From Bacilli bacterium (GTDB taxonomy: Bacteria; Bacillota_I; Bacilli_A; RFN20; CAG-826), in assembly GCA_041653015.1 (NCBI GenBank), contig JBAZGG010000006.1:574-64573 (forward strand): a stretch of 64,000 nt of DNA, in the 5' to 3' direction. Numbering within the stretch: the first letter of the stretch is position 1; every line of letters begins with the position of its first letter. Under the pieces are notes generated by a model. That model saw only the letters and a program-made list of their open reading frames with translations, was not told the origin of the DNA and ran no database searches. A program made the position numbers and the translations under genes. Of the stretch, positions 5,657 to 63,860 are shown piece by piece.

Positions 5657-7467
5657 TCATATGTTAATTTTTCTCAACAGTATGTCCGTTTATTCACTTG
5701 ATGCATTGCATTAGAATTGACAATAAATAACTTATAATTCTTCGAAGACCATTGACTTTGAATAGCTATAATTTTCAAATTATTAAAATCGTCTCTGCAA
5801 CGCGTAATCCGCATCAATCGTTTAATATTACGGATTTCTTCATATTAATATGAAAGTATCGTGAAGGTGTCGAAAACGTAATGGTTTTACAACTTTAAGG
5901 AATTGAACTTGCTAGGTTAACAAATTGGCTAATGTTAATCGCACATGAAGGTAGTGGTCGTGTAATTTCATGCAAGTTCATCACATTATAAAAGTTATGA
6001 TGATGGACGTTGACGATTAAAAGCGTTATTAACTTACAAACTATATCTCGTTCTTACATATACCATTACACATGAAAACATAACTTGTGAATGACTTAGA
6101 ATTAACGAAACTAAGTTTGATAAAAAGAAACTTTTTCGTCGTATTAATTTCTTTCTTTGATGCGTTATTATATATATGAAAACGATGGTATTTTTGTATA
6201 CTAATTTCTATTTCGAAATCCACCAAATGATTTTGTGATAGAGTTACTCAAAAAGGACGTTCATTGTTTTCCTTCTCAACTGGTTATTAACGAATTACAA
6301 AGCTAAAACAAGAGAAGAATAATTAGTTCGTATGAACAAATTAAAGAGGCATTAAAAAACAAATACTGCGACATATAGTTTAGCATCGAGAGCAAAACAG
6401 ATGCTGACAAAGCTTGTATTGAAAGTGACAAAGAGATTACTCATAACATGAAATTATTATCGACATGCAAGATTAACAAACCATGATTGACGCACTATTT
6501 TGTAGAAACGCTGTGAAAATTCCTCTGTTTGAAAAAAACGAAAAAGCAAGATATAAATGGTTCAACGATACCCATTATCTGGGTTATTTTTTTGAATTAT
6601 TGTTTGACATATAAAATGATTTCAAAAACTACATTTTTATTACTTTGGACAATTGTTTTTGAATCATCATCAAAACTAGAATGTGAATTCAAGAAAATTG
6701 TAGACAGAAATATTGAAATTTTATCGTTCGGCTCAGTTCAGAAATCATTAAAATGCTTCTCAATTGAAGAAAGAATAGATTCCGAAGTTGTCACGAGGAA
6801 GGATTTGTCCCAAGAAATTTGAAAGTTATTGAAATTAACGAAAATATATCAACTTAATTTCACGATTGTATTTTCAATTTATTTTCTTCAGAAATTGAAA
6901 TATCTTGGGAGAAAAATTTCGAAAACAATATTACCATATATAAAGCATCTTTCGATGACATTATTTGCCAACTTTCTCTATCAAAAAAAATCAGCTTGCA
7001 TTTTTTCTCATGTTAATTTAGCGAATTAATTGAACGAAATGGAAATTGAAGTAAAACTATTTATTTAATCGAAATTAAAGTTTTCAATAATTTCATATCA
7101 TTATGAGAAAAAGCAAAAAAACAACGGGCAATCTTTGTTGGTTCCTTTTATTGAATATTTCGAAGCCACAATCAATCAATCCCTCAAGCCTAAAGAACTA
7201 GTGTAAGACACAGATGATCCACCATTTTAATCTCTGATATATATTTGATTAATCTAGTTCAAAAACTGCACCAATCCACATTTAATCAAAGATTTCGATT
7301 TTTTAAAATCTCCAATTGTGTTTTTGACATTTTTGACTATTCAGAGAAACTTTGCATCGGCGTATATATGGGTGCTAAACATATTATTCTGCAAGTAATG
7401 CGATGAATAATGCGATACTCTCTTTTCTCTTGCAAATTTGTTATATACTATTTATAAGGATTGATAT

Positions 7468-8838
7468 ATGTTTTCAAAATATAAAAGTATTCATGAAGCG
7501 ATGCTGTTGGTTTATGAAGAATTAGAGAAAATAATTAAAAAGAACAAAATTACGGAGATATCAAGATCAAAGGAAATCGAAATAATTTGGAACTCGCTTT
7601 GTTTATCTTTTAGTTCCTATGCCCGTGATATTAACGTTTTTTTAGAGAATCTTGATAAAACGTATGATTCAGTAATGCCAAAATATGACTTTTTGGTGGC
7701 ATTTCTGTGGTTCTATGATAAAGAACGTTTATTCGCTCCTTTGAATGACAAGTTTAAATATAAAAATTTGGCATTCTCAGGCACCTATAGCAAAAGCACT
7801 ATTGAAGAAGGAATTCGAATTCGTGATTACTTCATTTTGCCAATAATTCATAGTGAAATAAAGGGCAAACTTATTAACAATTACGAAAAAATTGTTAGCA
7901 AAACCGTTCACGAGAAAAATATCATAAATAGATTTCTATTGAATTATTCAATTGTAAAAAACAAAGATAATCTGATTTCTTTGAAAACAATTGAGATGCA
8001 CAAATTTGTTGAGCGTATCAAAAGTAATGGATTGAAAGTAGCTCTAAATCCTATAGCATATAAAAACTTTGAATACTATTTTACGATGATAACTCACGTG
8101 AATCCATGCCCGTCTTTCTCCGTGAAAGTTGTTGAAGACCATGAAAAAGAATTAATTAATGTTTTTTCAGATTCATTGAACAAAAGCGTGGCCAAGGGTG
8201 TTGATCTTATTATATTTCCCGAAATGCATTTGACTACAAAATTGCTTGAGCAAATACCATCTATGATAAAGTACTTGAAAATAGAAAGACAAAGTTTAAT
8301 CATGGTAGGTACTCTATCGAATGAAACCTCCAACATGGCTTATTTATTTGATAACTATGGTAATTTAGTTTTAAAACAAAAAAAATATGGACAGTTTCTT
8401 TTGAGGGATCCTAATAATATAAACATCTCTTATGTCGAGGGCAGAGAATGGAATGATGCCGAAGATGTTTTGCTAGCTTTGCTAGACATAGTTGATTTCG
8501 GAAGAATGTCAATTTTTATTTGCAAAGATATTTATGAACCTAAAAAAAAGGATGCATTAATCAATTGTTCGGTTGATTTTCTTTTAATGCCATCATATTC
8601 TGAATCAAATTCAATCTCTGATTGTTTAAATGACTTAGCAAAATCGAGGGTAATTAGTTTTTTTGTGAATTCTTTTAATGCTTTTCTAAAAAAGAAAGAA
8701 AACATCGAAAAAATTCTTGGCAAAGTTGTATTGCCGTATTGGGATGAATGGCACAAGCAGAAATTTGTTGAGCATGTTTTGAATCCAAAAATCACGCGAA
8801 TTGAAAGAGGCAGCCTGACTATCGATTTAATTCTTTGA
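7468..8838 (+). CDS. Two-domain protein: an unknown N-terminal domain of about 230 aa fused to a carbon-nitrogen hydrolase (nitrilase-superfamily) domain
   Basis: The C-terminal half carries the E-K-C catalytic triad context of CN-hydrolases: DLIIFPEM (Glu), LVLKQKKYGQF (Lys), MSIFICKDIYEP (Cys). The N-terminal half has no recognisable motif. Confidence 0.55.
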   Translation: MFSKYKSIHEAMLLVYEELEKIIKKNKITEISRSKEIEIIWNSLCLSFSSYARDINVFLENLDKTYDSVMPKYDFLVAFLWFYDKERLFAPLNDKFKYKNLAFSGTYSKSTIEEGIRIRDYFILPIIHSEIKGKLINNYEKIVSKTVHEKNIINRFLLNYSIVKNKDNLISLKTIEMHKFVERIKSNGLKVALNPIAYKNFEYYFTMITHVNPCPSFSVKVVEDHEKELINVFSDSLNKSVAKGVDLIIFPEMHLTTKLLEQIPSMIKYLKIERQSLIMVGTLSNETSNMAYLFDNYGNLVLKQKKYGQFLLRDPNNINISYVEGREWNDAEDVLLALLDIVDFGRMSIFICKDIYEPKKKDALINCSVDFLLMPSYSESNSISDCLNDLAKSRVISFFVNSFNAFLKKKENIEKILGKVVLPYWDEWHKQKFVEHVLNPKITRIERGSLTIDLIL

Positions 8839-8940
8839 CTCTTTTCCACATATCCTATATTGCATTTATTTGAAATCTATGATTGTTCATGATATTATTA
8901 CAATGTGAATGAACAATGATGAACTAATGAGGAAAAGAAT

Positions 8941-9669
8941 ATGACGAGAGTAAAAATTGATTTAAATAGAAAAATTGATGTATTAAGACAAAGAGTTTTG
9001 GATTTTGTGCTATTGGATAAGAGAGACAGCGACGCTGATTATGAAAAACTCGTCTACTCTATTCAAGAGATTGAATTAAGCCGAGATGACGAGTTCGAGA
9101 AAGGCTACCTAAAATGCTTAGCTGATATATTGACCGCAAAAGATATTTTCGATACGGATACAAAGATTTTTGTTGACATTAGCAAACACCAGAATTCTGC
9201 AGCACTTGTTAGTTTATTGGCAGAGCATAATTCTCTTGGGCATCAAGAACTTGCAGAAAAACTTAAATTGTCCAAACAAGGACTCTCCAATCTTATAAAA
9301 GCTTTGTCCGAAACAAGAATTACTGACGAATGGAAAGTAGGAAGAAGCAAAATTTATTCTTTGACAAAAAAAGGTTTCTTGTTTTTGGAATGGTATGATT
9401 TGAATAATAAGAAATTATTGTTGGAGAAAAACAGCGCGTGGTTTGAATGGTTGAAAGATAAATTTGAGCCGTCTGCTGTTGTCGATAATCACGTCCCAAA
9501 TTTTGCAAAAGTTGAACCAGATAAGAGTTTTATTAACGCTAAGTGTGTGCTTAATCGAATTATAGAAAATGAGAATTCGCAAATTATTGATATTAGGGGT
9601 CAAGATTCAACGTTATATAAAGATGGTAATAAATTGCTGCTTAGTATGGCTTTGGGAGGAGAAAGATGA
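8941..9669 (+). CDS. Winged-helix (MarR/PadR-like) DNA-binding protein
   Basis: Central HTH segment LGHQELAEKLKLSKQGLSNLIKALSE, followed by a wing (WKVGRSKIYSLTKKG). Overlaps the downstream GIY-YIG gene by 4 nt. Confidence 0.5.
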   Translation: MTRVKIDLNRKIDVLRQRVLDFVLLDKRDSDADYEKLVYSIQEIELSRDDEFEKGYLKCLADILTAKDIFDTDTKIFVDISKHQNSAALVSLLAEHNSLGHQELAEKLKLSKQGLSNLIKALSETRITDEWKVGRSKIYSLTKKGFLFLEWYDLNNKKLLLEKNSAWFEWLKDKFEPSAVVDNHVPNFAKVEPDKSFINAKCVLNRIIENENSQIIDIRGQDSTLYKDGNKLLLSMALGGER

Positions 9670-10094
9670 AACAAGAATACTATTTAAAATTTAATGATTA
9701 TGTCGAGAATCCAAAAAATCTTCCAAGTGTGTCAGGAATATATTTAATTCGTAAGACAAAAAGAAAAAATGACGGGACCTTATCAGTTGAGTTATTGTAC
9801 GTAGGCAAAGCAGAAAACTTGAATGATAGATTTTCAGATCCAAACAAACACGAAGGATATGTCAAAGCTCAAAAATTATGTTCAAATTCAAAAGATAATT
9901 CGTATGTTTCAATTTCGTATGCCGAATGCCCAAAAAATAGTCTTGATAGAGTTGAGGCTTGTCTCATTTATACTAGCAAACCCAAACTCAACACTTTTAA
10001 TACAAAAACATTTGATTACGATGCAACCACTGTGTATGTTGGCGGTATAAGAAAGTCGAGCCTTGATAATATTAATGTCGCACAAAAAAAATAG
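9666..10094 (+). CDS. GIY-YIG domain nuclease
   Basis: GIY-YIG motifs SGIYLIR ... LYVGKAENLNDRF ... conserved Glu (VEACLIY) ... Asn. The 142-aa size is typical of standalone GIY-YIG effectors. Confidence 0.6.
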   Translation: MKQEYYLKFNDYVENPKNLPSVSGIYLIRKTKRKNDGTLSVELLYVGKAENLNDRFSDPNKHEGYVKAQKLCSNSKDNSYVSISYAECPKNSLDRVEACLIYTSKPKLNTFNTKTFDYDATTVYVGGIRKSSLDNINVAQKK

Positions 10095-10745
10095 CGTCAA
10101 ATACGTAGCTCTGTTCTATATTACTTGTGCTGTATCCATCTTTTATTTTTGAAAATAAGCACATTTTTGATTCCAAATCGTTTTTTTAAGTAAATTCTTT
10201 TTTTGTTTTATATTGATTTTATACTAATTGTGCACCGAAAAGTTTCTTATAAATGATGTTAGTCAACCTATCAAGAAAATTAGGAATGCGGAATAAAACT
10301 AATTTACTGGATTGAATTGAGATAACTCATCCCGTTTAATGCGATTTAATAAAATCGCAAAGTGCGTATGAAAAATCTAGAATCGTCTTGATTGAAATCA
10401 TCAAAACTGTCAAACGTACATTAAGAATTTTTTCAAACATACACTGAAACCTTAAAGAAGAGTGAAACTTTGAGTAGAATGTTTGTGCTAATGTGTTAGC
10501 GTTTGTGAAAGAAAATGGATAATGAAACCCATGAGTCTATTGCTAATAATAATTGCAATCTAACTTTTTAATTAAGTAGATTGAGTCGACAACAAACCTT
10601 TAAGAAAATGATTTTTCGATGCAACAATATAAAGAAAAATAGTGGGGAGTCGTTGTTTTTTATTTGGATGTTTTCGTCACTATGTTAAAATAACATTCAA
10701 TATCATCACGAATAATTTATACAACTCAAAAGAAGGGATTTAGAT

Positions 10746-11384
10746 ATGTACGAATTTGTTTCTAAAAACGAATTAAAGCCCGTTAAAGCAAAAATTGATT
10801 TGATAATTAGAAATCTTCAGCGACTATTAAAACAAGACAAAATAACATTTAAATCTATTCTTGTCGGTAGCGCAAAGAAACATCTTGTCACAAGATTAGT
10901 GGATGGGAATAAGGGATTTGATTTCGATTATAATTTGTCACTTCAAAAATGCCCAGATAATATTTCTCCAAAAGAGCTTAAAACACTTTTTCTTAGTAGG
11001 TTAAATATCGTACTAGAAGATAGTGGATATAAAAAAGCCGAAAACAATACACAATCAATGACCATCAAGTTTCTTGATTCTAGAAATAGCAGAATTATTC
11101 ATTCTTGTGACATTGCTATTGTCAGCGATCATGAGGAAGAAGGAGAGACGTTTCAAAAGATACTGATTTTCGACAAATCGAATAAAAAATATATTTGGAA
11201 TAAACGGCCACTCGTGAAGAATTATTCCGCAAAATTATCAAGCATACTCAGCAATGGCTTGTGGCATGAGGTTAAAGAAGAATATTTAAATCTAAAGAAC
11301 ACTAACAATGATTCTGAAAAGAAATCATTTCAACTGTATCTGGAAGCTCTAAACAACGTGTACAACCATTATGACTGGAATTAA
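10746..11384 (+). CDS. Polβ-superfamily nucleotidyltransferase (SMODS/CD-NTase-like or MNT-like)
   Basis: GS...DxD active-site pattern (VGSAKKHLVTRLVDGNKGFDFDYNL) plus a third acidic residue on a later strand (HSCDIAIV). RBS AAGAAGGGA upstream. Confidence 0.55.
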   Translation: MYEFVSKNELKPVKAKIDLIIRNLQRLLKQDKITFKSILVGSAKKHLVTRLVDGNKGFDFDYNLSLQKCPDNISPKELKTLFLSRLNIVLEDSGYKKAENNTQSMTIKFLDSRNSRIIHSCDIAIVSDHEEEGETFQKILIFDKSNKKYIWNKRPLVKNYSAKLSSILSNGLWHEVKEEYLNLKNTNNDSEKKSFQLYLEALNNVYNHYDWN

Positions 11385-12099
11385 AGCAAAAAAACTTTCT
11401 TTGAATCTTTCAAAGGATGAATTCATTAAAAAAATGATTTTTCATACGGATGATGAAATTGAAAGATGTAAGAAGTACCTAGACTTGAAAGGCGTTGAAT
11501 ATCATATTGTACTTGCTAATTTTATTGGGTTGAATAACCATGGGAAGGTGGAATATAAGAAGGTTTCGTGCCTTTATCAATACGATAAAAGGATTCGAAA
11601 TATTCTTTACAAATATATATCTGCCTTTGAAGAAAGTATAAGAGCGTTTATATGCAATAAATATAGCCAAACAATTGATTCGTTCAAGAAAATTAGTGAA
11701 TCAATATGCGAAAGAATAAGCAGAGGTGGCAGTTTATCTCGTGAACTTGAAGATTTGGATTTAGGCAAGCTTTTGAATCTTGCTAAGAAGCTTTCGGCCG
11801 AAGAAAAAAGTAGATTGTTTGGCAAAACTGAAAAACTATCTGAAAACCTGAATGCAGTTAGGGAGTTGCGGAATGCAGTAAGTCATCATCGGCTACTATT
11901 CATTTATGAAGACTTTGAGACATGCTTTATCGATGGTAAAGAACTTGATTCCTTGCAAGCAAACATACTCAATCTTTATAAATTGATTAATCCCTATTAT
12001 CAAGAGTTTTTCAAAATAGCAATAAACGATGCGATTAAAGCCGACGATGATAGAGAATTTACAAACGCTATTCCAAAGACAGCTATTATTCGCATATGA
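11371..12099 (+). CDS. Abi_2 (AbiD/AbiF-like) HEPN-domain protein
   Basis: Rx4H HEPN motif in the Abi_2 context ELRNAVSHHRLLF. Overlaps the upstream nucleotidyltransferase by 14 nt (translational coupling). Confidence 0.55.
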   Translation: MTGIKAKKLSLNLSKDEFIKKMIFHTDDEIERCKKYLDLKGVEYHIVLANFIGLNNHGKVEYKKVSCLYQYDKRIRNILYKYISAFEESIRAFICNKYSQTIDSFKKISESICERISRGGSLSRELEDLDLGKLLNLAKKLSAEEKSRLFGKTEKLSENLNAVRELRNAVSHHRLLFIYEDFETCFIDGKELDSLQANILNLYKLINPYYQEFFKIAINDAIKADDDREFTNAIPKTAIIRI

Positions 12100-53709: not shown

Positions 53710-54609
53710 ATGGCATTAAAATACAAAAAATATCTGGATCAAAAGATTAAAGACTTCCATGGCACCAGCATATTGATTACTGGAGCCAATAGTGGAATAG
53801 GCTACGAAGCATCATTAGCTTTGGCATATAAAGGTGCACACATATATATGGCATGTCGAAATGTCGAACGTGCAGTCATCGCTAAAAAAGCAATTCTCGA
53901 AGAGGTGCCAGAAGCTCAAATCGAAATACTGCTATATGATCAAGCATCTATATCAAGCATTAAAAAACTAGCATCGAAAATCAAAGATGATGGATTCAAA
54001 CTCGATGGTTTTGTTTTTAATGCTGGGGTATATCATCCAAAAAATGGTTTAAAAACAGAAGATGGTTTCTCTTTGACGCTCGGAACGAATTATGTCGGCG
54101 CGAAAATATTATTTGAAAATTTAGAATCATATTTTGCTCAAAATAATACTAGATTAGTCTTTGTTGGATCTCTTGCGAATAAAAGAGTTTCTCCAAGGAT
54201 TATATACGCAAATATTTTTGGTGAAAAAGATTCTCTTTTTGCTCAGTACAAAATTTCTAAATATTGTATCATGCAAAATGCGTATCATTTATCTGTACAT
54301 AACAGAAACAATGTTGTCGCTGTCGTCCATCCCGGCGTTACTTCTACAAATATAATAAATGGATTTCCACGAAGATTTCAAAATGCCGCTCGCTTTGTTT
54401 TAAGGGCGTTCACGCATCCTGCCTCTAAAGCATCTTTAACAATTGTCTATGCTTTGAGCGAGAGCGTTTCTTCCGGATCATATATTGTGCCACGCGGATT
54501 ATTTCACATCGATGGATACCCCACGATATCTGCTATTCCTAAAAAGATTAAGAATAATTTTGAAAATGATTATCAGGAGATGCAACAATATTTGAAAGGC
54601 AAATTTTAA
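53710..54609 (+). CDS. Short-chain dehydrogenase/reductase (SDR)
   Basis: TGANSGIGYE (TGxxxGxG) and YxxxK (YKISKY). Confidence 0.8.
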   Translation: MALKYKKYLDQKIKDFHGTSILITGANSGIGYEASLALAYKGAHIYMACRNVERAVIAKKAILEEVPEAQIEILLYDQASISSIKKLASKIKDDGFKLDGFVFNAGVYHPKNGLKTEDGFSLTLGTNYVGAKILFENLESYFAQNNTRLVFVGSLANKRVSPRIIYANIFGEKDSLFAQYKISKYCIMQNAYHLSVHNRNNVVAVVHPGVTSTNIINGFPRRFQNAARFVLRAFTHPASKASLTIVYALSESVSSGSYIVPRGLFHIDGYPTISAIPKKIKNNFENDYQEMQQYLKGKF

Positions 54610-55175
54610 ACTGATTTGAGCGACTGTATATATTTTCTATAGACATCATCAGCAATCTCGTCGATACTCGCCTTTGACGTATCAATAACAAAATCCGTTT
54701 TCCCTATATTATTAAATGAAAAATCGACTCTATCGTTTAAGATTCGACTTTTTGCATTATTTGCATCATCGCCACGAGAGAGCATTCTTTCTAATCTAAT
54801 CTTCTCGTCAGCGTACATTAAAAAAGAAATTATTCGCTTGTTGTTCAGCTTCTTGAATGCTTTTAAACCATTCGGATCGACAATAACGGCTTTTCCATCA
54901 GCGATTTGTGCCTTTGAACATCCATAGTAATTGTCGTTATATAGGGTGTGTTCAGCGAAAGCATCCTTCAAAAGTAATTTTTCAAATTCTGCCTTTGCTA
55001 CAAAAAAGTAGTCTACACCATTTTTCTCATCTTTGCGCATCGGTCGAGTCGTGTGAGTAATCGCTTTTACAATGCCATATTTTTTTGCTAATAATTTGGC
55101 AACTTCAGTTTTGCCACTCGCTGATGCGCCAACTAAAATAATCATGCTTTGATTATAATGTTTCTCATCTCTCAT
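54606..55175 (-). CDS. Guanylate-kinase-like P-loop kinase
   Basis: VGASASGKT P-loop and TTRPMRKDEKNGVDYFFV guanylate-kinase signature. The true start may be the internal Met at 55145. Confidence 0.55.
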   Translation of the reverse strand: MRDEKHYNQSMIILVGASASGKTEVAKLLAKKYGIVKAITHTTRPMRKDEKNGVDYFFVAKAEFEKLLLKDAFAEHTLYNDNYYGCSKAQIADGKAVIVDPNGLKAFKKLNNKRIISFLMYADEKIRLERMLSRGDDANNAKSRILNDRVDFSFNNIGKTDFVIDTSKASIDEIADDVYRKYIQSLKSV

Positions 55176-55252: not shown

Positions 55253-55954
55253 ATGGGAAAAATCATGTATACTGCTGAACTTGATGAATTATGTCAAGTT
55301 CATAAAGGTTGTGACCATGGTCCAGCTCCAATTCCTGAAGAGGGACAATGGGTTAGAAGCAAAGAAATTACTGACATTAGCGCGTTAAGCCACGGAGTTG
55401 GCTGGTGTGCGCCTCAGCAAGGGGCATGCAAATTGACACTAAATGTCAAAAGCGGAATCATCGAAGAAGCTTTGGTTGAAACCATCGGTTGCTCCGGAAT
55501 GACTCAATCTGCTGCTATGGCAGCGGAAATACTTCAAGGAAAAACAATTCTTGAAGCGCTTAACACTGATTTGGTGTGCGATGCCATAAACGTTGCGATG
55601 AGAGAAATATTTCAGCAACTCGCCTATGGTCGTTCACAGACAGCATTTTCGGAAAATGGTTTGCCAGTCGGCTCATCATTGGAAGATTTAGGCGGTGTCT
55701 TAAGAAGTCAAGTCGGAACTATGTGGGGAACGAGGAAAAAAGGCGTTCGATATCTCGAGATGACGGACGGATACGTTCTCGAGCTCGGACTAGATAAGAA
55801 TAGTGAAGTGATCGGATATCGCTATGTCAATCTTGGGAAAATGATGAAATCTATTAGAACGGGTGTCGATCCAAAGACCGCCTATGAAAAAGCCATCGGA
55901 ATTTATGGTCGTTTTGCAGAAGCCGTCAAAGTTATTGACCCTAGGAAGGAATAA
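55253..55954 (+). CDS. Hypothetical protein with a divergent NifU/IscU-like Cys motif region
   Basis: RBS AAAGGAGAATATATG. Segment ETIGCSGMTQSAAMAAEILQGKTILEAL resembles the IscU C-terminal Cys/helix. Weak. Confidence 0.3.
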   Translation: MGKIMYTAELDELCQVHKGCDHGPAPIPEEGQWVRSKEITDISALSHGVGWCAPQQGACKLTLNVKSGIIEEALVETIGCSGMTQSAAMAAEILQGKTILEALNTDLVCDAINVAMREIFQQLAYGRSQTAFSENGLPVGSSLEDLGGVLRSQVGTMWGTRKKGVRYLEMTDGYVLELGLDKNSEVIGYRYVNLGKMMKSIRTGVDPKTAYEKAIGIYGRFAEAVKVIDPRKE

Positions 55955-55960
55955 TAATTT

Positions 55961-56965
55961 ATGCAACCTGTAATTGAAAATTATGATCGTCGCAGAGAAA
56001 AAATTGAACTCTGCATGAAGGAATATGGCATCAAAGATTTTGATGATGCAAAAGCTATTTGCAGCAGCAGAGGAATTGACCCCTACAAAATTGTTAAAGA
56101 AACGCAACCGATTGCCTTTGAAGATGCCGGATGGGCTTATACGCTCGGATGTGCTATCGCCATTAAAAAGGGAGTGAAGACGGCTCCTGAAGCTGCTGAA
56201 GCAGTTGGAATCGGTTTACAATCTTTTTGTGTGCCTGGAAGCGTGGCTGAAATTCGTGCAATTGGATTAGGACATGGCAATTTAGGCGCGATGCTGTTGA
56301 GAGAAGAGACGAAATGTTTCTGCTTTTTGGCTGGCCATGAAAGCTTTGCCGCAGCTGAGGGTGCGATAAAAATTGCCCTCAATGCTAATAAAGTTCGCAA
56401 GAGTCCGCTTAAGGTCATTCTCAATGGATTAGGAAAAGATGCCGCTTATATTATTTCACGAGTCAACGGTTTTACTTATGTTGAAACCGATTATGATTTT
56501 AAAAATGATAAAGTGTGTATCATTCGTAAAGTTTCATTTTCTGATGGTCCAAGAGGGCAAATTTTATGCTATGGAACAAATGACGCTCTTGAGGGTGTCG
56601 CGATAATGAAATTAGAAGGTGTAGATGTTTCTATAACTGGAAATTCTACAAATCCAACAAGATTTCAACATCTAGTTGCTGGAATCTATAAAAAATGGTG
56701 TTTCGAACATAATAAGAGATATTTTTCTGTCGCAAGCGGTGGTGGAACTGGAAGAACGCTTCATCCAGACAATATGGGTGCCGGTCCTGCTTCCTATGGA
56801 TTCACTGATAGTTTAGGCAGAATGCATGGCGATGCTCAATTCGCTGGCAGTTCAAGCGTTCCCGCTCACGTTGAAATGATGGGATTTATCGGCATGGGGA
56901 ACAACCCAATGGTCGGTGCTACTGTCGCTGTCGCTGTTGCTATTTACCAAGCGATGAAAAAATAG
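55961..56965 (+). CDS. Conserved hypothetical Gly-rich protein
   Basis: 7 nt after the upstream stop. Motifs GGGTGRT and GFIGMGNNPMVGATVAV. No family recognised. Confidence 0.3.
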   Translation: MQPVIENYDRRREKIELCMKEYGIKDFDDAKAICSSRGIDPYKIVKETQPIAFEDAGWAYTLGCAIAIKKGVKTAPEAAEAVGIGLQSFCVPGSVAEIRAIGLGHGNLGAMLLREETKCFCFLAGHESFAAAEGAIKIALNANKVRKSPLKVILNGLGKDAAYIISRVNGFTYVETDYDFKNDKVCIIRKVSFSDGPRGQILCYGTNDALEGVAIMKLEGVDVSITGNSTNPTRFQHLVAGIYKKWCFEHNKRYFSVASGGGTGRTLHPDNMGAGPASYGFTDSLGRMHGDAQFAGSSSVPAHVEMMGFIGMGNNPMVGATVAVAVAIYQAMKK

Positions 56966-57078
56966 TCTTCATATAACGAGCCTCGGTTTTTTAAATGAAT
57001 TGAGGCTTTTTATTTTTGAAAAAGTGGGCACACTATTTTTTTCGATGACTAATAAGATAATAGGGAAGGAGAAATATA

Positions 57079-57426
57079 ATGGACACAAATGCTAAGACAT
57101 CAAATTTGAGAACAATGTCTCAGATGATGCTATCTATCGCTGAAAGCTATTTTGCCAGCCTTGATGCTGTTTTAAAAGGAGAAAAAAGAATAGTCTCTGT
57201 CTTGTCTGACAGCGAATCAAATGCTCGTTTTGAAAAACATAGAATGATCATTAAAGTTGTCGAAGACATATTCACAAAACTTGATCCGATTTCTCGAGAA
57301 ATAATTAACAACGATTTTTTTCATAACGAGAATAAGTTTTGGTGGATTAAGATTTATCCAACTTCAACATACTATCGTTTAAAAAACACTGCGCTGCGTG
57401 AATTTTTAGAATTGTATTCTAACTAA
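57079..57426 (+). CDS. Hypothetical small protein, first gene of the pilus/secretion operon
   Basis: RBS AGGGAAGGAGAAATATAATG. Followed 5 nt later by the next ORF. Confidence 0.35.
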   Translation: MDTNAKTSNLRTMSQMMLSIAESYFASLDAVLKGEKRIVSVLSDSESNARFEKHRMIIKVVEDIFTKLDPISREIINNDFFHNENKFWWIKIYPTSTYYRLKNTALREFLELYSN

Positions 57427-57431
57427 TTTAT

Positions 57432-58490
57432 ATGTTAAAAACAAAGACTGTTATCGCAATAGTTGTTTTTGCTGTGGCCGCTGTTGGGAGTGGTATTTAT
57501 AAAGCGAATAGTCCACTTTTCTATTTTTATGGCGAGAGTGGTCCTCTGCGCTTTGGAGAGAAAAATAACCTTCATTTTTTTGCATGTAATCGATCTACAA
57601 AAATAACGAATATGTCATTATGCGCTTATATTACAAACTCGAATGGAGTTGAAACGCGTTTTTATTATCAAATTCCTAAAACATATAAAAATTATGAGAA
57701 AAAGGAATACACGATTGAAATATCTTCTTCCTTACTTAAACTAGGAATTCAAACAATAAGACTGGCTTTGCTGAATTATGGTAATGTTTATCACCAGACA
57801 GCTTTCAGACTTTTTTGCCGGAATTTTTCATTAGATAGAACGGTGATACAACCAGATCAACTCGATAGCGATTATGTCGGTTTTCAAGATTATGTTAAGT
57901 TTAATTCTCTTGCTTCTCACTCTTACTATCGAGATATTTTTTCTTTTGAGGATTTTACCCCATTCAAAACGAGAAATTATTATCATCGCCTCGACATCTC
58001 ATCATTTTCGTTTTTCTTTTATAACGATTATTGTGAGAACAACTTATCGTATGAAAATTCGTACTTAGAAATTGAAGAAAATCAAAATCTGCAATTATAT
58101 CGATATGTATCGCCTGACAACTATAGTGGTTTTCGAAGGTTGAGTACGAAAATTGAAAGAGATCCGCTTTTTAATAATCACTATACAATAAAGCTTGATC
58201 AAAAATTATATGTTAATCCTCACACCTTAATCATGTCATCAACACAGCTCAGCGGTTTTGTTGAAACTCGGTATTTTTACTTTCCCAAAGCATATTATGA
58301 TGACTGCCATATCACTAATTTTCGGCTTGTGATAACAGGTCTTACTATTAATTATTACGATTTAAAATATTCGTTCACTTATGAGACAGATAAACCATTG
58401 TTGGGTAATTGCTCAATCGCTCAGTATTGCATAGAAACAAGCATTGGTGCCGACACCTCGTTTCCTTCTTATCAAGAGGTAATCAAGTGA
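57432..58490 (+). CDS. Hypothetical secreted protein
   Basis: N-terminal signal/TM segment. Ends with TGA overlapping the downstream GTG start (GTGA). Confidence 0.4.
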   Translation: MLKTKTVIAIVVFAVAAVGSGIYKANSPLFYFYGESGPLRFGEKNNLHFFACNRSTKITNMSLCAYITNSNGVETRFYYQIPKTYKNYEKKEYTIEISSSLLKLGIQTIRLALLNYGNVYHQTAFRLFCRNFSLDRTVIQPDQLDSDYVGFQDYVKFNSLASHSYYRDIFSFEDFTPFKTRNYYHRLDISSFSFFFYNDYCENNLSYENSYLEIEENQNLQLYRYVSPDNYSGFRRLSTKIERDPLFNNHYTIKLDQKLYVNPHTLIMSSTQLSGFVETRYFYFPKAYYDDCHITNFRLVITGLTINYYDLKYSFTYETDKPLLGNCSIAQYCIETSIGADTSFPSYQEVIK

Positions 58491-58885
58491 TTAACGTAAT
58501 TTTTTATCTGATCATTCTGGGAATGTGTCTAAATACTTTTTCTTTGTCGCTATCATTCGGCCATGTCAATCGTAGTTTTTTAATGCTCGCATGTGCCATT
58601 CCGGAGTCGAGTGTTGTCGTGACTGATGACCTAGAGCCATATTCGCCGTATTACGATGAGGAATACTTTCAGTTTCTTGTTAAAAACTATTTGCAAAACG
58701 AAATCACAGATTATGTTGATTCTGCTGAAGTTCGATACTTCTACTATTATCCAGAAGATGAATCGATGTGTACAGATCATCACTGTCAAGGCGCCTCAGT
58801 TACTTTAATTGCAAAAATAAAACTAATTTTTACTTATGAAAAAACATTGACATTTTCAATTCTTAAGGGTGATTTATATGAATAA
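58487..58885 (+). CDS. Hypothetical small secreted or membrane protein
   Basis: GTG start overlapping the upstream TGA, RBS AAGAGGT 8 nt upstream, hydrophobic N-terminus (VINVIFYLIILGMCL). Confidence 0.35.
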   Translation: MINVIFYLIILGMCLNTFSLSLSFGHVNRSFLMLACAIPESSVVVTDDLEPYSPYYDEEYFQFLVKNYLQNEITDYVDSAEVRYFYYYPEDESMCTDHHCQGASVTLIAKIKLIFTYEKTLTFSILKGDLYE

Positions 58886-59918
58886 GAAATTGCTTGAATA
58901 CATCGATTCATCATTTCTTGCTCCTTTGCTATTGTCATCGTCGATTACTGACATTTCTTATAATGGCGTCGATTTGTTTTATCAAGACAATGAAAAGGGC
59001 AGGCAAAAATCAGATATAAAAATAGAAACGCATCTCGCCATGGATTTTATCAGACAAATTGCGAATTTGAGCGAGCAGCAGTTTTCATATTCGAATCCGA
59101 TTCTCGATGTGAGCGTTGGTCGATATAGAATTAATGCTGTTCACGGAGCAATAGTTCGAGTAGAAAATGATAGAGCAGTATCTTTTTCTATCCGAATAGC
59201 CTCATCTAAATTGCGAATATCTGATGATAACTCGTTTATGCCTCACGAGATATATTCGTTGTTGTTAACGCTTATAAAATGTCATATTTCGCTTGTTATT
59301 GGCGGTGAAACAGGCACTGGTAAGACAGAACTTCAGCGATTATTGCTCAGTCATGTTGAAAAAAACGGAAGAGTTATTGTTATCGACAATATCCAGGAAC
59401 TAGAGGCTATAAGGCAGAATGCAGACACAGATATTACTTCCTGGCAAGTCAATGATTCTATTCTAGATGCTTCTTTTGAAAATCTGATTAGAAATGCCAT
59501 TCGCTCAAATCCTGATTGGCTCATCGTTGCCGAAGCGCGCGGAAAAGAGATGAACGATGTCTTGAATGCCGTCATGACTGGTCACCCAATTATCACAACG
59601 ATTCATTCAAAAGATATTCACTCTATGCCGTCGAGGATGGCGAGGATGGTCATGATGAAAAATGATCTTGTCACCTATGATTCAATTATGGATGATATCG
59701 CCAAGCATTTTCCAATTCTTCTTTATTTATCACGAGTCGTGATCAATGGTAAAATATTCAGATATTTATCCGAAATTGGCGAGTTTTGTGAAGAAACCAA
59801 ACGCGTCTCGCTAATTTATGAAAAAAAGAATGGCAAAGGCAAATTCTTTCCCATCAGCAATAGAATGGCACAATTTTTAAAAAATGCTAATTTTTCAGAG
59901 GAAATGATTCATGAATAG
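58869..59918 (+). CDS. VirB11/CpaF/TadA-family secretion ATPase (T2SSE superfamily)
   Basis: Walker A GGETGTGKT, Asp-box/Walker B WLIVAEARG, His-box TGHPIITTIHS. 349 aa. Confidence 0.75.
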   Translation: MIYMNKKLLEYIDSSFLAPLLLSSSITDISYNGVDLFYQDNEKGRQKSDIKIETHLAMDFIRQIANLSEQQFSYSNPILDVSVGRYRINAVHGAIVRVENDRAVSFSIRIASSKLRISDDNSFMPHEIYSLLLTLIKCHISLVIGGETGTGKTELQRLLLSHVEKNGRVIVIDNIQELEAIRQNADTDITSWQVNDSILDASFENLIRNAIRSNPDWLIVAEARGKEMNDVLNAVMTGHPIITTIHSKDIHSMPSRMARMVMMKNDLVTYDSIMDDIAKHFPILLYLSRVVINGKIFRYLSEIGEFCEETKRVSLIYEKKNGKGKFFPISNRMAQFLKNANFSEEMIHE

Positions 59919-60630
59919 AAATCTGTATTTAACCGCTGTTGCAATTTCTGTTATTTCATCGATTGTAGCCTATGTTGCAACATCTAATATTTACGTATGT
60001 TTTGCTATATTACTCGTATATTTATTCTACCTAATTTTTTCTGTAAAAAACGTATTGATCTGTTATAAAAATCGACTTGATAGAATTCACGAATGTTTCA
60101 ATTTCACAAATAGCTTCATCATCTCATTGAGCGTTAACAATTCGCTTCAGGCCGCTTATGAATGTGCAACTCTAAATGCAAAAGGCTACTTGCTTGATGA
60201 AACAAGCCACATCGAACATCTTCAAATAAATGAGCGTATTAATTATTTATCCAATTATTTCTCGTCCGATATCTACAAGATGTTTTTAAACATTATTAAC
60301 GCATATGAAGATCAGGGAGGGAATATATTGACGATGAGCGAAACATTAATCAAGGAATTGACTAGAATTGAAAATGAGACAAATGAATATTCATCATTGA
60401 GCAAAAAGCGAATTATTGAGTTTTCTTCATTGTGGATTTTAACATACGTCATCTTGCTTTTTGTTCGGTTTGCTTTGTCTCAATTTTATAATCAAATCTC
60501 TGCTTCACCTCTTTTCGTTGGATCAATCTGCATCTTTTTCGTCTTCGTCTTAATTTCCATTCATTTAATGATAACAATATTCACGCAGATAAATTTTGTT
60601 CTGAGGAGGAAAACTAATGAAAAAGTTTAA
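59911..60630 (+). CDS. T2SSF-domain (TadB/GspF-like) membrane protein
   Basis: TM-cytoplasmic-TM topology. Overlaps the ATPase gene by 8 nt. Confidence 0.5.
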   Translation: MNRNLYLTAVAISVISSIVAYVATSNIYVCFAILLVYLFYLIFSVKNVLICYKNRLDRIHECFNFTNSFIISLSVNNSLQAAYECATLNAKGYLLDETSHIEHLQINERINYLSNYFSSDIYKMFLNIINAYEDQGGNILTMSETLIKELTRIENETNEYSSLSKKRIIEFSSLWILTYVILLFVRFALSQFYNQISASPLFVGSICIFFVFVLISIHLMITIFTQINFVLRRKTNEKV

Positions 60631-61285
60631 TGCGTTAATCGTGATTTTGGGATTGGAAAAAGGAAAGGAAATAGCCAAAATCATTGTTATAAACGCAGTT
60701 TTGATAGCAATACTTGGAACGGCATTGTTTTTTCTTATGAAGGTTATTGTTTTAGCAATTGGATTAACAGTGATTATCACTTGCAATATTGGATACATAT
60801 CGCGTTATAGAACAATGGAAAAAGAATTATATCAACGGCGAGAAAAAGAATTCGTTGCCTTATTCACATACTTTGAAATTTATATATCAAATGGCGTGAA
60901 CATATATAACGCTTTGGAAAACATCGCGCAATTCGCGTCCCCATTTTTAAAAGAAAGAATAGGTCAATTACTATTTGAAATCGATAACGACAAAACTGTC
61001 CAGCCATATGTCAAATTTGCTCATTCTTTTCAATCGCTTTTAATAGAGCAATTGATGGTGAGTATTTTTCAAATGGTTGATCAAGGATGTAACTCCTCCT
61101 ATCTACGACAATTTCAATTGCTTTTCGACAAAATATCAGAAGAGCGATACAGACAAGACATTACCTCTAGACTTAAAAAAATAGAGATGCTCAGTATCTG
61201 CCCTTTGATTGGTGCTGGTATGATCACAATTATTATTACGGTCGGCATCGTTTCAATAATCGGGGGTGTCATAAGTGGGATATAA
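60617..61285 (+). CDS. T2SSF-domain (TadC/GspF-like) membrane protein
   Basis: YISNGVNIYNALENIAQFASPFLKERIGQLLFEI matches the GspF/TadC cytoplasmic-domain consensus. TM helices at both ends. Confidence 0.55.
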   Translation: MKKFNALIVILGLEKGKEIAKIIVINAVLIAILGTALFFLMKVIVLAIGLTVIITCNIGYISRYRTMEKELYQRREKEFVALFTYFEIYISNGVNIYNALENIAQFASPFLKERIGQLLFEIDNDKTVQPYVKFAHSFQSLLIEQLMVSIFQMVDQGCNSSYLRQFQLLFDKISEERYRQDITSRLKKIEMLSICPLIGAGMITIIITVGIVSIIGGVISGI

Positions 61286-61610
61286 AGTTGGCTTGCTGCT
61301 TTCCTTGGTATTTGTTTTTCAAATTTTCGTTCTCGGAGGTGATATTTTAGCCATTCAGTTTATTTATTCAGATATCGACAGCGTTTCTATGACGGCGGGA
61401 TATATGATTTCGAAAGAAGGTAATTACACCAGCGCAAAACATTTTGTTGAAGCGCAAAGCATGGTTTTTATTTGTGATGAGACTAACCCTCCGATGTATG
61501 GTGATCCATGGACATACTATGTCTGTGAAGATTATCAGCCACTCATCATCAAAAAAGATGTGATGCGAATAAGTGTGAAACGCAGTGTGATTATAGGTTT
61601 TTACAATTAA
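61275..61610 (+). CDS. Hypothetical protein with an N-terminal TM helix (possible minor pilin or pseudopilin)
   Basis: Overlaps upstream by 11 nt. N-terminal hydrophobic segment GLLLSLVFVFQIFVLGG. Confidence 0.3.
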   Translation: MGYKVGLLLSLVFVFQIFVLGGDILAIQFIYSDIDSVSMTAGYMISKEGNYTSAKHFVEAQSMVFICDETNPPMYGDPWTYYVCEDYQPLIIKKDVMRISVKRSVIIGFYN

Positions 61611-61624
61611 AGAGGAGGTGAATT

Positions 61625-61792
61625 ATGTCAGAAATAAAAGGTCAGTTATTTGCTATCTTACTCGTTGTTCTCGTTTTCGCATCGGTCGGAACCATTTTGG
61701 CTTCGGTGTATGTTAACGCAGCAAATGAAGTAGCAGAAAAAGTTGCTGATTCGAGCATCATCAGTGTGCCAAAAGCTTCAACAATTAGTTGA
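61625..61792 (+). CDS. 55-aa pilin-like protein (charged N-terminus, Gly, hydrophobic helix)
   Basis: Strong RBS AAGAGGAGGTGAATTATG. Sequence MSEIKGQLFAILLVVLVFASVGTILASVYVNAANEVAEKVADSSIISVPKASTIS. Last gene before a strong terminator. Below the 60-aa ORF-track cutoff. Confidence 0.45.
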   Translation: MSEIKGQLFAILLVVLVFASVGTILASVYVNAANEVAEKVADSSIISVPKASTIS

Positions 61793-61822
61793 TAGTCATC
61801 ATCATATAGATGATAAGAATGA

Positions 61823-61850
61823 GAAGGGCATGCCCTTTTCATTTTTAATT
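61823..61850 (+). terminator. Rho-independent terminator of the pilus/secretion operon
   Basis: AGGGCATGCCCT hairpin followed by TTTTCATTTTTAATTTT. Confidence 0.6.
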
Positions 61851-62164: not shown

Positions 62165-62239
62165 GCCTACTTAGCTCAGTGGTAGAGCAATCGGCTGTTA
62201 ACCGATTGGTCGGGGGTTCGAGCCCCTCAGTAGGCGCCA
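62165..62239 (+). tRNA. tRNA-Asn(GUU)
   Basis: Acceptor GCCTACT/AGTAGGC, anticodon loop CTGTTAA (GTT), T-arm GGGGTTCGAGCCCC, CCA. Confidence 0.85.
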
Positions 62240-62245
62240 TTTTTT

Positions 62246-62322
62246 GGCCCGTTGGAGAAGCGACTTAACTCACATGCCTTTCACGCATGCATTCATGGGT
62301 TTGAATCCCGTACGGGTCACCA
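62246..62322 (+). tRNA. tRNA-Glu(UUC)
   Basis: Acceptor GGCCCGT/ACGGGTC, anticodon stem CATGC/GCATG with loop CTTTCAC (TTC), CCA. Confidence 0.75.
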
Positions 62323-62370
62323 CATTAACGAATCAGATCGCTCAAAAGGCGGTCTTTTTTCTTTTAAACT

Positions 62371-62403
62371 TTGGTTCACTTTTGGTTCACTTTTGGTTCA
62401 CTT
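62371..62403. repeat. Three tandem copies of an 11-bp unit, TTGGTTCACTT
   Basis: Read directly: ttggttcactt ttggttcactt ttggttcactt. Lies between tRNA-Glu and the AlbA_2 gene start. Confidence 0.8.
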
Positions 62404-62435
62404 TGAGATATCATATTTATGAATCGAGGTGTCCA

Positions 62436-63860
62436 CTTGTGAAACCTATAACCGAAGAACAACTGCGTGAATTTCTAAGAATGCCACACGAAACTGAATG
62501 GCTAGAGTTTAAAACCGATTGGTTTCAAAGCAATCAACTTGGAGAATATATTTCCGCTATTTCGAATTCCGCTTCAATGAATGGAAAGAAAGAAGGCTTC
62601 ATGATATGGGGGGTCGATAACGATAGTCACGATATCGTAGGAACAGAATTTGATTTCCGAGTTGATGTAAACAAAAACGAGCCACTTGAGCATTTTCTGG
62701 CTCGACAGCTATCACCGAGCATTGCTTTTCGCTTTGAAGAAACTGCGGTGGAGAATAAAAGAATAGTCATACTTAGAATCCCAGCAGCCATTAAAGTTCC
62801 AACATCATATGAAAAAGAGAGATGGCTGAGAATTGGATCTAGTAAAGTCAATCTCTCCAAATATCCAGAAAGAGAAGCGAATTTTTGGGAGGTACTAAAA
62901 CAAGGGCTTCCGACAATGGCCAACACTCCGTCAGAGTATCAAAATCTAACTTTCAACAAACTGTTTTCTTATTGCGACAATAAAGGACATCCACTAAACA
63001 AGGATACTTATAAAGATAATCTCCACCTTTTGACTGATGATGGACAGCATAACTTAGTTGCCAAGTTGCTTGCAGATAATGGTCATGTAAGCATAAAGGC
63101 AGGCCTTTTCAGAGGAACATCAAAAGCCGATACTCTCTATAGCGTCAAAGAATTTGGCAATACTTGCTTATTCATTTCTGCAGATTCGATTCTTGAATAT
63201 GGCGACATAATCAATATTTTGCAGGCGGATGAGGTGCATCGGGTTGCGGGAAGGAAAGAAATTCCACTATTTGATTCATCAGCGTATCGCGAAGCCGTTC
63301 TAAATGCGCTGATTCATAATAAGTGGGTTTCTGGTGATGCCCCAATGTTTGAGTTTTTCTCAGATCGAATCGAGATTAGGTCGTTTGGACCAATGCCGCC
63401 TAATCAGACATCTTCTGGTTTCTTCCGTGGGAATTCAAAACCTGTAAATAAAGAGTTGTCAGAAGCTTTTTCAACTCTTGGAATTAGTGATAGATTGGGA
63501 AGAGGCGTTCCTAAAATTGTCCATGCCTATGGGGAACAAGCTTTCTCGTTTGAAGAAGACAGTATTCTTGTTACGATTCCGTTTTCTGTTTTAGAAGACA
63601 AACAAGATAATATAAATGAGTTTGATGAACGATTAGAACTCAAAATGGATGAACTAAAATTGAACCAAAGCCAAAAAATAATCATTAAATCTATGTTTGA
63701 GAATCGCAATGTATCAATTTTTGGACTCATGGAAAAAACAGGATTAGGGAAAACCGGAGTCATCAAGAGCATCAAAATATTAAAGGAAAAGGGTTTGGTA
63801 ATTAGGACAGGAACTGCAAGAGTCGGCTATTGGTCCGTCAAAATTCAAGTGAACCAATAG
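62436..63860 (+). CDS. AlbA_2 (Schlafen-like, divergent AAA-4) domain putative DNA-binding protein with a C-terminal wHTH
   Basis: N-terminal AlbA_2 consensus (EEQLREFLRMPHETEWLEFKTDW ... ISAISNSASMNGKKEGFMIWGVDNDSHDIVG). C-terminal HTH-like KSMFENRNVSIFGLMEKTGLGKTGVIKSIKILKEKGLV. The track ORF starts inside the tRNA. The start is placed at TTG/GTG around 62436 after RBS GAGGTG. Confidence 0.6.
   Translation, partial: LVKPITEEQLREFLRMPHETEWLEFKTDWFQSNQLGEYISAISNSASMNGKKEGFMIWGVDNDSHDIVGTEFDFRVDVNKNEPLEHFLARQLSPSIAFRFEETAVENKRIVILRIPAAIKVPTSYEKERWLRIGSSKVNLSKYPEREANFWEVLKQGLPTMANTPSEYQNLTFNKLFSYCDNKGHPLNKDTYKDNLHLLTDDGQHNLVAKLLADNGHVSIKAGLFRGTSKADTLYSVKEFGNTCLFISADSILEYGDIINILQADEVHRVAGRKEIPLFDSSAYREAVLNALIHNKWVSGDAPMFEFFSDRIEIRSFGPMPPNQTSSGFFRGNSKPVNKELSEAFSTLGISDRLGRGVPKIVHAYGEQAFSFEEDSILVTIPFSVLEDKQDNINEFDERLELKMDELKLNQSQKIIIKSMFENRNVSIFGLMEKTGLGKTGVIKSIKILKEKGLVIRTGTARVGYWSVKIQVNQ

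Follow-up and report, generated by a model that had tools for sequence, protein, structure and literature searches.

A conserved eight-gene operon of uncultured gut Bacilli that probably encodes a minimal type IV filament machine

Structure and conservation of the operon

Near the end of a 64,000-nt stretch of contig JBAZGG010000006.1 from a Bacilli bacterium (the window), eight co-directional open reading frames (ORFs), designated g1 to g8, occupy positions 57079-61792 of the plus strand and form an operon that probably encodes a minimal type IV filament machine (Table 1). The g2 stop and g3 start codons share the GTGA at 58487-58490, the pairs g3/g4, g4/g5, g5/g6 and g6/g7 overlap by 8, 8, 14 and 11 nt, respectively, and g7 is separated from g8 by 14 nt, with AAAGAGGAGG ahead of the latter. 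The ribosome-binding site (RBS) of g1 lies in the 70-nt gap that follows the upstream hairpin. As hairpins lie both just upstream and just downstream, g1 to g8 were taken to be one transcription unit, and the tightly overlapping eight-gene operon described in an initial annotation of this DNA was confirmed in its ORFs, coordinates and overlaps. In related loci the 90 nt 3' of g8 fold at a median of -18.9 kcal/mol, a value obtained with no shuffled control. Two details of the initial annotation were revised. The start of the ATPase gene g4, placed there at GTG 58869, was moved to ATG 58878, as the homologues begin with an invariant M1-N2. The "two or three secreted proteins" were also redefined, since g1 contains no hydrophobic segment, whereas g2, g3, g7 and g8 each carry one at the N-terminus.

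Table 1. Genes and boundary features of the operon, in window positions.
Feature	Position	Strand	Product (aa)	Description
Terminator-like hairpin of the preceding GGGtGRT gene	56978-57008	+		12-bp stem then T-run; upstream operon boundary
g1	57079-57426	+	115	Predicted cytoplasmic transcriptional activator, ArpU/sigma-70-region-4-like, MG284/MPN403 family
g2	57432-58490	+	352	Exported, Sec-type N-terminal signal or anchor; candidate adhesin or assembly factor
g3	58487-58885	+	132	N-terminal transmembrane helix and extracellular domain with conserved Cys pair; no family
g4	58878-59918	+	346	Secretion ATPase (motor), archaeal-GspE/FlaI/VirB11/TadA group
g5	59911-60630	+	239	Putative TadB/TadC-like platform protein: two transmembrane helices, cytoplasmic helical domain, two transmembrane helices
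g6	60617-61285	+	222	Putative platform protein, g5 paralogue
g7	61275-61610	+	111	Candidate TadF-like minor pilin or pseudopilin
g8	61625-61792	+	55	Candidate major pilin, leader MSEIKG
Intrinsic terminator	61814-61847	+		15-bp stem then T-run; 3' operon boundary

The ATPase g4 has 1693 database relatives. In a scan of one genome per species, such relatives were found in 232 matching stretches, of which 80 loci were kept for comparisons. All 80 are from metagenome-assembled genomes (MAGs) of gut, rumen or digester origin, labelled Bacilli, "uncultured Mollicutes", Erysipelotrichaceae, Ca. Enteromonas or Ca. Fiminaster. Ca. Enteromonas corresponds to GTDB order RFN20, family CAG-826, with genomes of 1.2-1.8 Mb (PMC8035907), and Ca. 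Fiminaster is placed by the NCBI taxonomy as Bacilli incertae sedis. When the eight window proteins were compared with all ORFs of these loci using phmmer, g3 to g8 were recovered in 72-81 loci (g3 in 75) and g1 and g2 in 51-56, the remaining loci carrying divergent versions at the same positions or lying on truncated contigs. Gene order from g1 to g8 was identical throughout, and the full synteny seen in about 80 loci of different species is far beyond chance. A guanylate kinase gene lies upstream on the opposite strand in 60 loci (window copy 54606-55175, minus strand). In at least seven loci an acyl carrier protein gene is found downstream, as it is in the window, where it comes after g8. 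Given this conserved gene order and neighbourhood, the operon was therefore considered a vertically inherited core chromosomal operon and not a mobile island. In the source databases one ATPase homologue is named "CpaF", the others being called "hypothetical protein" or, for the most part, left nameless; the system was thus previously unannotated, its parts being nearly all "hypothetical", and the literature search returned no description of the operon, of its component families or of MG284/MPN403.

It was also considered that the genes might be left over from a mobile element or prophage, or be a module of one, and serve transfer and not a host function. Such an origin would account for the matches of g1 to ArpU and to the phage "transcriptional activator" phrog_248 (1.9e-5), for the conjugal-transfer-associated TadA family being the best NCBIfam match of g4, and for the two tRNA genes found after the operon in the window. 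However, the same chromosomal neighbours accompany the operon in at least 60 species, integrase, relaxase and phage structural genes are lacking, its guanine-plus-cytosine (GC) content equals that of its surroundings in a scan of the window, and its divergence follows the species, with the ATPase 47-63% identical between loci. This explanation is therefore extremely improbable, and a mobile-element origin was rejected on the grounds of the conserved synteny.

Motor, platform, candidate pilins and regulator

The g4 protein matches the Pfam T2SSE profile (PF00437) at 1.3e-22, with 80.4 bits against a cutoff of 24.9. Among the curated NCBIfam families it scored 114.6 bits with TadA-like TIGR03819, 111.1 with VirB11, 92.2 with FlaI and 63.8 with ComGA, remaining far below the cutoff of every one of them (373 for TIGR03819 and 300 for ComGA, NF041000), and SpoIIIAA was matched weakly (2e-4). 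Use of the g4 family profile against the sequences of the PDB retrieved archaeal GspE (2oap) first, at 4.7e-28 and 101 bits, followed by FlaI (4e-22, 82 bits), HP0525 VirB11 (6e-21) and CpaF (1.9e-18, 70 bits), with PilT, PilB and GspE at 1e-9 or weaker. The Walker A motif (G143-T150), Asp box (D170-E174), Walker B motif (D213-G222) and His box (G235-H243) are all invariant in the family, in agreement with the VirB11/CpaF-type ATPase that had first been proposed. Together, the motifs and the ranking, which is one of scores and not of a tree, place the g4 motor in the archaeal/Tad/VirB11 branch and not in the ComGA/PilB branch.

The products of g5 and g6 had been described as two single-domain T2SSF membrane proteins of TadB/TadC type. 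Tad systems, as well as some of archaea, are characterised by a single-domain platform pair of this type (PMC6668835; bioRxiv 10.64898/2026.04.22.720090). The listed homologues of both proteins bear "hypothetical protein" as their sole given name and none contains a Pfam domain; T2SSF was the commonest weak family match of the g6 homologues (7 of 34 members), and profile searches with g5 and g6 against PDB sequences returned nothing relevant. The AlphaFold2 model of g5 was of good confidence (pLDDT 91.8, pTM 0.80), and its best Foldseek matches in the PDB were the cytoplasmic domains of OutF, EpsF and PilC, with template-modelling scores (TMt) of 0.52-0.63 and probabilities of up to 0.95. For g6 the model was poor (pLDDT 56, the homologue set being too uniform) and is weak evidence only; its top seven PDB fold matches were all T2SSF domains (OutF, PilC, EpsF and TcpE; TMt 0.57-0.67, probability 0.77-0.99). 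Alignment of the two families with hhalign was weak at first (22%) and became convincing only with a more diverse g5 alignment, which gave a probability of 90.1% and an E-value of 1.6e-6 over 194 columns. As the Foldseek E-values for g5 and g6 are weak (0.3-3), the evidence from profiles and models that the two are paralogues forming a TadB/TadC-like pair is good but not conclusive.

The short g8 gene was compared in 65 distinct homologous sequences. Its leader carries Met at position -6 (64 of 65), Ser at -5 (62 of 65), Glu at -4, Lys at -2 and Gly at -1 (65 of 65 each), with Ile, Leu or Val at -3. Position +1 is Gln in 53 sequences and otherwise Thr, Ser or His, position +5 is Ile, Val, Met or Leu in all 65, and the first 22 mature residues are uncharged in 60. 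The protein has a single transmembrane helix and a mature length of 39-63 residues across the homologues, and pairwise identity falls from 58% in the N-terminal 29 residues to 18% in the remainder. At the nucleotide level, pairwise identity over the first 28 codons in 71 loci was 0.62, 0.78 and 0.38 at codon positions 1, 2 and 3, a pattern by which g8 is a real gene, and in related loci the gap of 12-18 nt between g7 and g8 contains a Shine-Dalgarno sequence. The 55-residue ORF with a strong RBS and terminator that had been reported was therefore substantiated by the Shine-Dalgarno sequence before it, the 15-bp-stem terminator after it and the coding signature within it, and the MSEIKG N-terminus, described as class-III- or prepilin-like and devoid of Glu+5 and of G/XXXXEY, proved to be conserved family-wide. 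With its basic residue at -2, Gly at -1 and hydrophobic helix free of Glu5, g8 fits the class III signal pattern of the FlaFind and EppA literature, and the K-G↓Q-L arrangement presumably resembles the EppA-type archaeal form. Judged from the alignment, the layout is that of a pilin, with a conserved assembly helix, a variable exposed tail and the size of Flp.

In the alignment of g7, the N-terminus reads M-[G/S]-Y-K-x-G and is followed by a hydrophobic helix. TadF (PF16964) was its only recurrent Pfam family, matched by 14 of 36 members. All matches share one register, in which residues 4-64 align with profile positions 11-71; the highest score is 21.5 bits, where the cutoff is 27.3, and these sub-threshold matches make g7 a candidate TadF-like minor pilin or pseudopilin. 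For g2 and g3 no family was found in Pfam, NCBIfam or PHROGs. The g3 protein opens straight into its transmembrane helix (MINxxF...), with the conserved Cys pair in the extracellular domain. The g2 protein has a single N-terminal hydrophobic segment of Sec type and is fast-evolving (mean column identity 27%), with a conserved C-terminal module (YVNPxTLxMS...GF..T..FYxP, GDCxxSxYC). In several g2 homologues a Cys directly follows the N-terminal hydrophobic stretch (LIASC, MLTC; L005:1318-2343, L019:4582-5604 and L009:4493-5608), and this lipobox-like residue suggests lipoprotein anchoring in some species; the window g2 has no such Cys.

The first gene of the operon is always g1, which is present in at least 56 loci. 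Its product passes NCBIfam NF045770, the C-terminal domain of the MG284/MPN403 family (69.9 bits against a cutoff of 37.3, 1.3e-19), with residues 58-113 aligned to profile positions 2-57 of 57, and in addition to the phage activator match given above it matches ArpU (TIGR01637) at 0.0016. The conserved C-terminal half (LD..E..IINN.FF....Y..WW...YS.STYYR.K..A...FL) looks like the helix-turn-helix of sigma-70 region 4 or ArpU. The g1 protein is predicted to be a cytoplasmic regulator and neither a structural nor a secreted protein, and we infer that it activates its own operon. A k-mer search upstream of g1, for which the control region was unsuitable, yielded only A/T-rich words and no sharply defined promoter motif shared between loci.

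In about a quarter of the loci, an anti-Shine-Dalgarno stretch (CCUCC/CCCCU-type) located 10-15 nt upstream is able to base-pair with the Shine-Dalgarno sequence of g1. When the 50 nt upstream of g1 were folded for 50 distinct sequences, 28% had a z-score below -1.5, with a mean of -0.56 (examples are L057, L060, L079, L039 and L063). In part of the family, translation of the activator may thus be controlled by this pairing. An RBS-sequestering hairpin as a general feature of g1 was rejected, as it was seen only in a subset of loci and the window leader (57029-57081) folds unconvincingly, with a z-score of 0.13.

Proposed filament machine and the evidence against it

Taken together, we consider it probable that the operon specifies a minimal monoderm machine of the Tad/archaeal branch that makes a type IV filament from a 55-residue subunit and most likely serves attachment. 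A hexameric g4 ATPase would dock on a heteromeric g5/g6 platform, which would extract g8 from the membrane and polymerise it into a thin Flp-like pilus, each mature g8 of about 49 residues supplying one hydrophobic helix and a variable exposed tail. A class III (A24) signal peptidase would cut the leader M-S-E-[ILV]-K-G just behind its invariant Gly; the peptidase gene would lie elsewhere, as is often the case for tadV, and the filament would assemble without the Glu5 salt bridge, like archaeal pilins. The TadF-like g7, and perhaps g3, may be subunits of low abundance that prime the filament or sit at its tip; g2, which is large, exported and fast-evolving, may serve as an associated adhesin or assembly factor, and g1 would control expression of the operon. 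The most likely role of such a filament would be attachment to the host, to particles or to other cells in the gut or rumen. The initial annotation had suggested a streamlined Gram-positive or Mollicutes-type Tad-like pilus with an atypical short pilin, a proposal that the sequences and models of the ATPase, the platform pair, g7 and g8 support.

Besides the poor g6 model and the weak Foldseek E-values, a number of results weigh against this interpretation. With regard to the platform, g6 scored 18.9 bits (0.0016) against PF00482 (T2SSF), below the threshold of 25.2, and g5 had no Pfam match, T2SSF appearing weakly in 1 of 33 members and 2 of 35 of the most divergent members. The g5 family profile defines a closed set of 307 representatives out of 1.84 billion proteins, and an exhaustive profile search found no bridge from it to canonical T2SSF proteins. 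At Pfam thresholds both membrane proteins therefore fail the T2SSF profiles, an outcome that the initial annotation had named as counting against it, and this is overturned only by the fold matches and the profile-profile evidence for paralogy. With regard to the pilin, Glu5 is absent from g8 in all 65 sequences, as is the Flp motif G/XXXXEY of PF04964, the invariant Gly being followed by Q-L-L-G-[IVML] and by no E-Y. Among 47 g8 homologues no recurrent match was obtained with the pilin profiles Flp_Fap, N_methyl, Pilin_N and Class_IIIsignal, Pilin_N matching only two (best E-value 0.059); Flp_Fap and N_methyl, the profiles that had been proposed as a check, matched none.

A prepilin peptidase and a TadZ protein also belong to this account. 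The polytopic membrane ORFs of the window belong to other families (DUF2188-containing, DAC, RDD, NERD and Wzy), so that no A24-like prepilin peptidase was found within the 64 kb, and no recurrent flank cluster or polytopic flank ORF of the 80 loci resembles one. Likewise, neither the six reading frames of the window nor any ORF of at least 100 residues from the 80 loci contains the motif GxGD[hydrophobic][KR]. The reported lack of a local prepilin peptidase or secretin was upheld, the scans for an A24 peptidase covering the window and 80 flanks. As tadV is often encoded apart from tad loci (PMC6668835), absence of the peptidase from the locus is not proof of its absence from the genome; in the related, reduced genome of Bulleidia extructa, the horizontally acquired tad operon starts with tadV (PMC12786226). 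No ParA/MinD-like gene of the TadZ/CpaE kind is present in the operon, all eight genes of which are accounted for.

These results bear on a second explanation, by which no filament would be formed and the ATPase and platform would constitute a membrane translocase or a "bindosome"-, SpoIIIA- or type IV secretion system (T4SS)-like channel, with g8 as a small membrane subunit and g2, g3 and g7 as exported or anchored clients. The lack of any pilin profile match for g8 and of a peptidase in the window or flanks would be in keeping with this, as would the weak matches of g8 to SpoIIIAC/AD (two homologues, best 8e-4) and to TrbC/VirB2 (two, best 7e-3), the similarity of the ATPase, weak to SpoIIIAA and strong to VirB11, and the appearance of SpoIIIAB at rank 25 among the g6 fold matches. 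SpoIIIA (AA-AH) and VirB11-containing T4SS share with the operon an ATPase of the same superfamily and small hydrophobic proteins; SpoIIIA is also an eight-gene operon, in which SpoIIIAB has a T2SSF-like fold. However, the SpoIIIAC and TrbC matches are sporadic, at 2 of 47 homologues each, homologues of SpoIIIAE-AH, VirB4, VirB6, VirB8-10 and VirD4 are lacking here, and the similarity scores are far lower than those to the TadA and FlaI families. Furthermore, g8 has one transmembrane helix and not two, its K-G leader, conserved N-terminus and hypervariable C-terminus follow the pilin pattern, and g7, with its in-register matches to TadF, speaks for a pilus. A machine without a filament is accordingly judged improbable, and the SpoIIIA-like and T4SS-like readings were rejected as their partner genes are lacking and the matches not recurrent.

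Relation to known systems, function and neighbourhood

The closest known systems to the proposed filament machine are the Tad/Flp pili (Aggregatibacter tad, Caulobacter Cpa and, among monoderms, those of Bifidobacterium breve, Micrococcus luteus and Bulleidia extructa). Shared with these are a small TadA/CpaF-sized ATPase, two separate putative single-domain platform proteins, a very short candidate pilin with no globular domain, a candidate TadF-like pseudopilin and, as in monoderm Tad, the lack of a secretin, and the peptidase may lie apart from the locus in both. Unlike Tad, however, the operon has a pilin that fails PF04964 for want of the Flp motif, it includes neither TadZ nor TadV, with which the Bulleidia operon begins (PMC12786226), and its platform proteins and pilins lie below all Pfam and NCBIfam thresholds. 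Its ATPase profile ranks archaeal GspE and FlaI above CpaF, it has its own ArpU/sigma-like regulator, and it is a vertically inherited core operon, whereas Tad is typically horizontally mobile.

Minimal type IV filaments of archaea (Epd or "system 1", subsystem 4A) also consist of an ATPase, two platform proteins, a short pilin with no globular domain and an adhesin-like protein (bioRxiv 10.64898/2026.04.22.720090). The solved ATPases closest to g4 are archaeal, by score ranking and not by phylogeny. In g8 the basic residue at -2, Gly at -1, Gln at +1 and lack of Glu5 are further points of likeness, matching the EppA-type class III signal of archaea. They differ from the present system in that its host is bacterial, Pilin_N was matched weakly by so few g8 homologues, and EppA, PibD and FlaK were not found locally.

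The ComG system of Bacillota resembles the operon in being a monoderm type IV filament operon of a Bacilli host with small pilin-like genes at its end, and the short K-G leader of g8 recalls that of ComGC. The "Com-like" alternative of the initial annotation was nevertheless discarded: the ComGA family is unmatched (63.8 against 300 bits), the platform is divided between the single-domain proteins g5 and g6 where ComGB carries two T2SSF domains in one chain, g8 lacks the N-methyl motif and Glu5 of ComGC, and there is no ComGD-GG set. As the Flp motif and TadZ are missing and several profiles remain below threshold, the operon, compared gene by gene, falls outside Tad in the strict sense, and it is not ComG; it would work like a Tad or an archaeal Epd/4A pilus. 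A bolder proposal is that it represents an undescribed subfamily of filament machines native to this uncultured lineage of gut Bacilli, nearer to minimal archaeal Epd/4A than to canonical bacterial Tad, with an archaeal-style K-G↓Q pilin signal and no Glu5, a pilin cut by a non-canonical peptidase or assembled uncut, and an operon-encoded sigma-like factor, related to the Mycoplasma proteins MG284/MPN403, that switches it on; this we regard as tentative and somewhat doubtful.

Tad-type pili can support natural transformation, as exemplified by the Flp system of Micrococcus luteus. The same machine could therefore have the task of DNA uptake, as a Tad-type competence pilus that replaces or supplements ComG and feeds a ComEA/ComEC channel, for transformation or for nucleotide salvage in auxotrophic small-genome bacteria. 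That the operon is a vertically inherited core feature and not a horizontally acquired adhesion island would fit this role, as would a dedicated sigma-like activator of the kind often found in competence regulons, and competence systems are kept in related reduced-genome Bacillota (PMC12786226). On the other hand, comEA, comEC, comF and dprA were not noticed in the window or the conserved flanks, where the ORFs are partly annotated, the ATPase is far below the ComGA cutoff, no DNA-binding feature is seen in g8 or g7, and the fast-evolving, 350-residue exported g2 is more like an adhesin under diversifying pressure. DNA uptake is thus considered unlikely, if possible, being without specific support here, and adhesion, the default function for such pili, is preferred.

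The uncultured, small-genome Bacilli of the RFN20 type and their relatives occur commonly in the gut communities of humans and animals, and a lineage-wide surface-filament machine, if true, would provide a concrete handle on their lifestyle, be it adhesion, episymbiosis or the scavenging of DNA or nutrients. For the type IV filament field it would represent a bacterial system whose pilin needs neither Glu5 nor the Flp motifs, and it would widen the poorly resolved border zone in which archaeal Epd-type pili and bacterial Tad pili meet. The MG284/MPN403 protein family gains its first genomic context from g1, and with profiles made from the families of g5, g6, g7 and g8, annotation pipelines would be able to recognise the system.

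In the window, a NifU-like gene (PF01592, 7.4e-5) and a GGGtGRT-family gene (PF14057, 5e-184) lie at 55253-56965, between the guanylate kinase gene and the operon. This pair is absent from the recurrent flank clusters of the other loci and looks like a lineage-specific insertion. Farther upstream of the guanylate kinase gene, related loci encode CNNM-type membrane proteins and a short-chain dehydrogenase/reductase. On the downstream side, at 62165-63860, tRNA-Asn and tRNA-Glu follow the acyl carrier protein gene. The longest ORF there, 62244-63860, with Schlafen/AlbA_2 and HATPase_c_4 domains, overlaps tRNA-Glu at its 5' end, and its true start must therefore be farther downstream. Elsewhere in the window, positions 6001-12000 have a GC content of 0.29-0.32, against 0.35-0.44 in the remainder, and contain several mid-sized ORFs (7468-12099), which may mark an acquired island.

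Two complete, divergent copies of the operon were found in MAG OH_PDB_148 (L007 on JAEWMX010000013.1 and L045 on JAEWMX010000007.1), with identities of 65% for the ATPase, 59% for g6, 60% for g8 and 42% for g2, reflecting either two paralogous systems per genome or a bin that mixes two organisms. Four further loci are titled Bacteroidaceae (L011), Coriobacteriaceae (L014), Oscillospiraceae (L024) and Lachnospiraceae (L037) and carry g1 and g3 to g7 in the usual order. The arrangement in these is that of the Bacilli MAGs, and the taxonomy assigned to this "cleanbin" series therefore looks unreliable.

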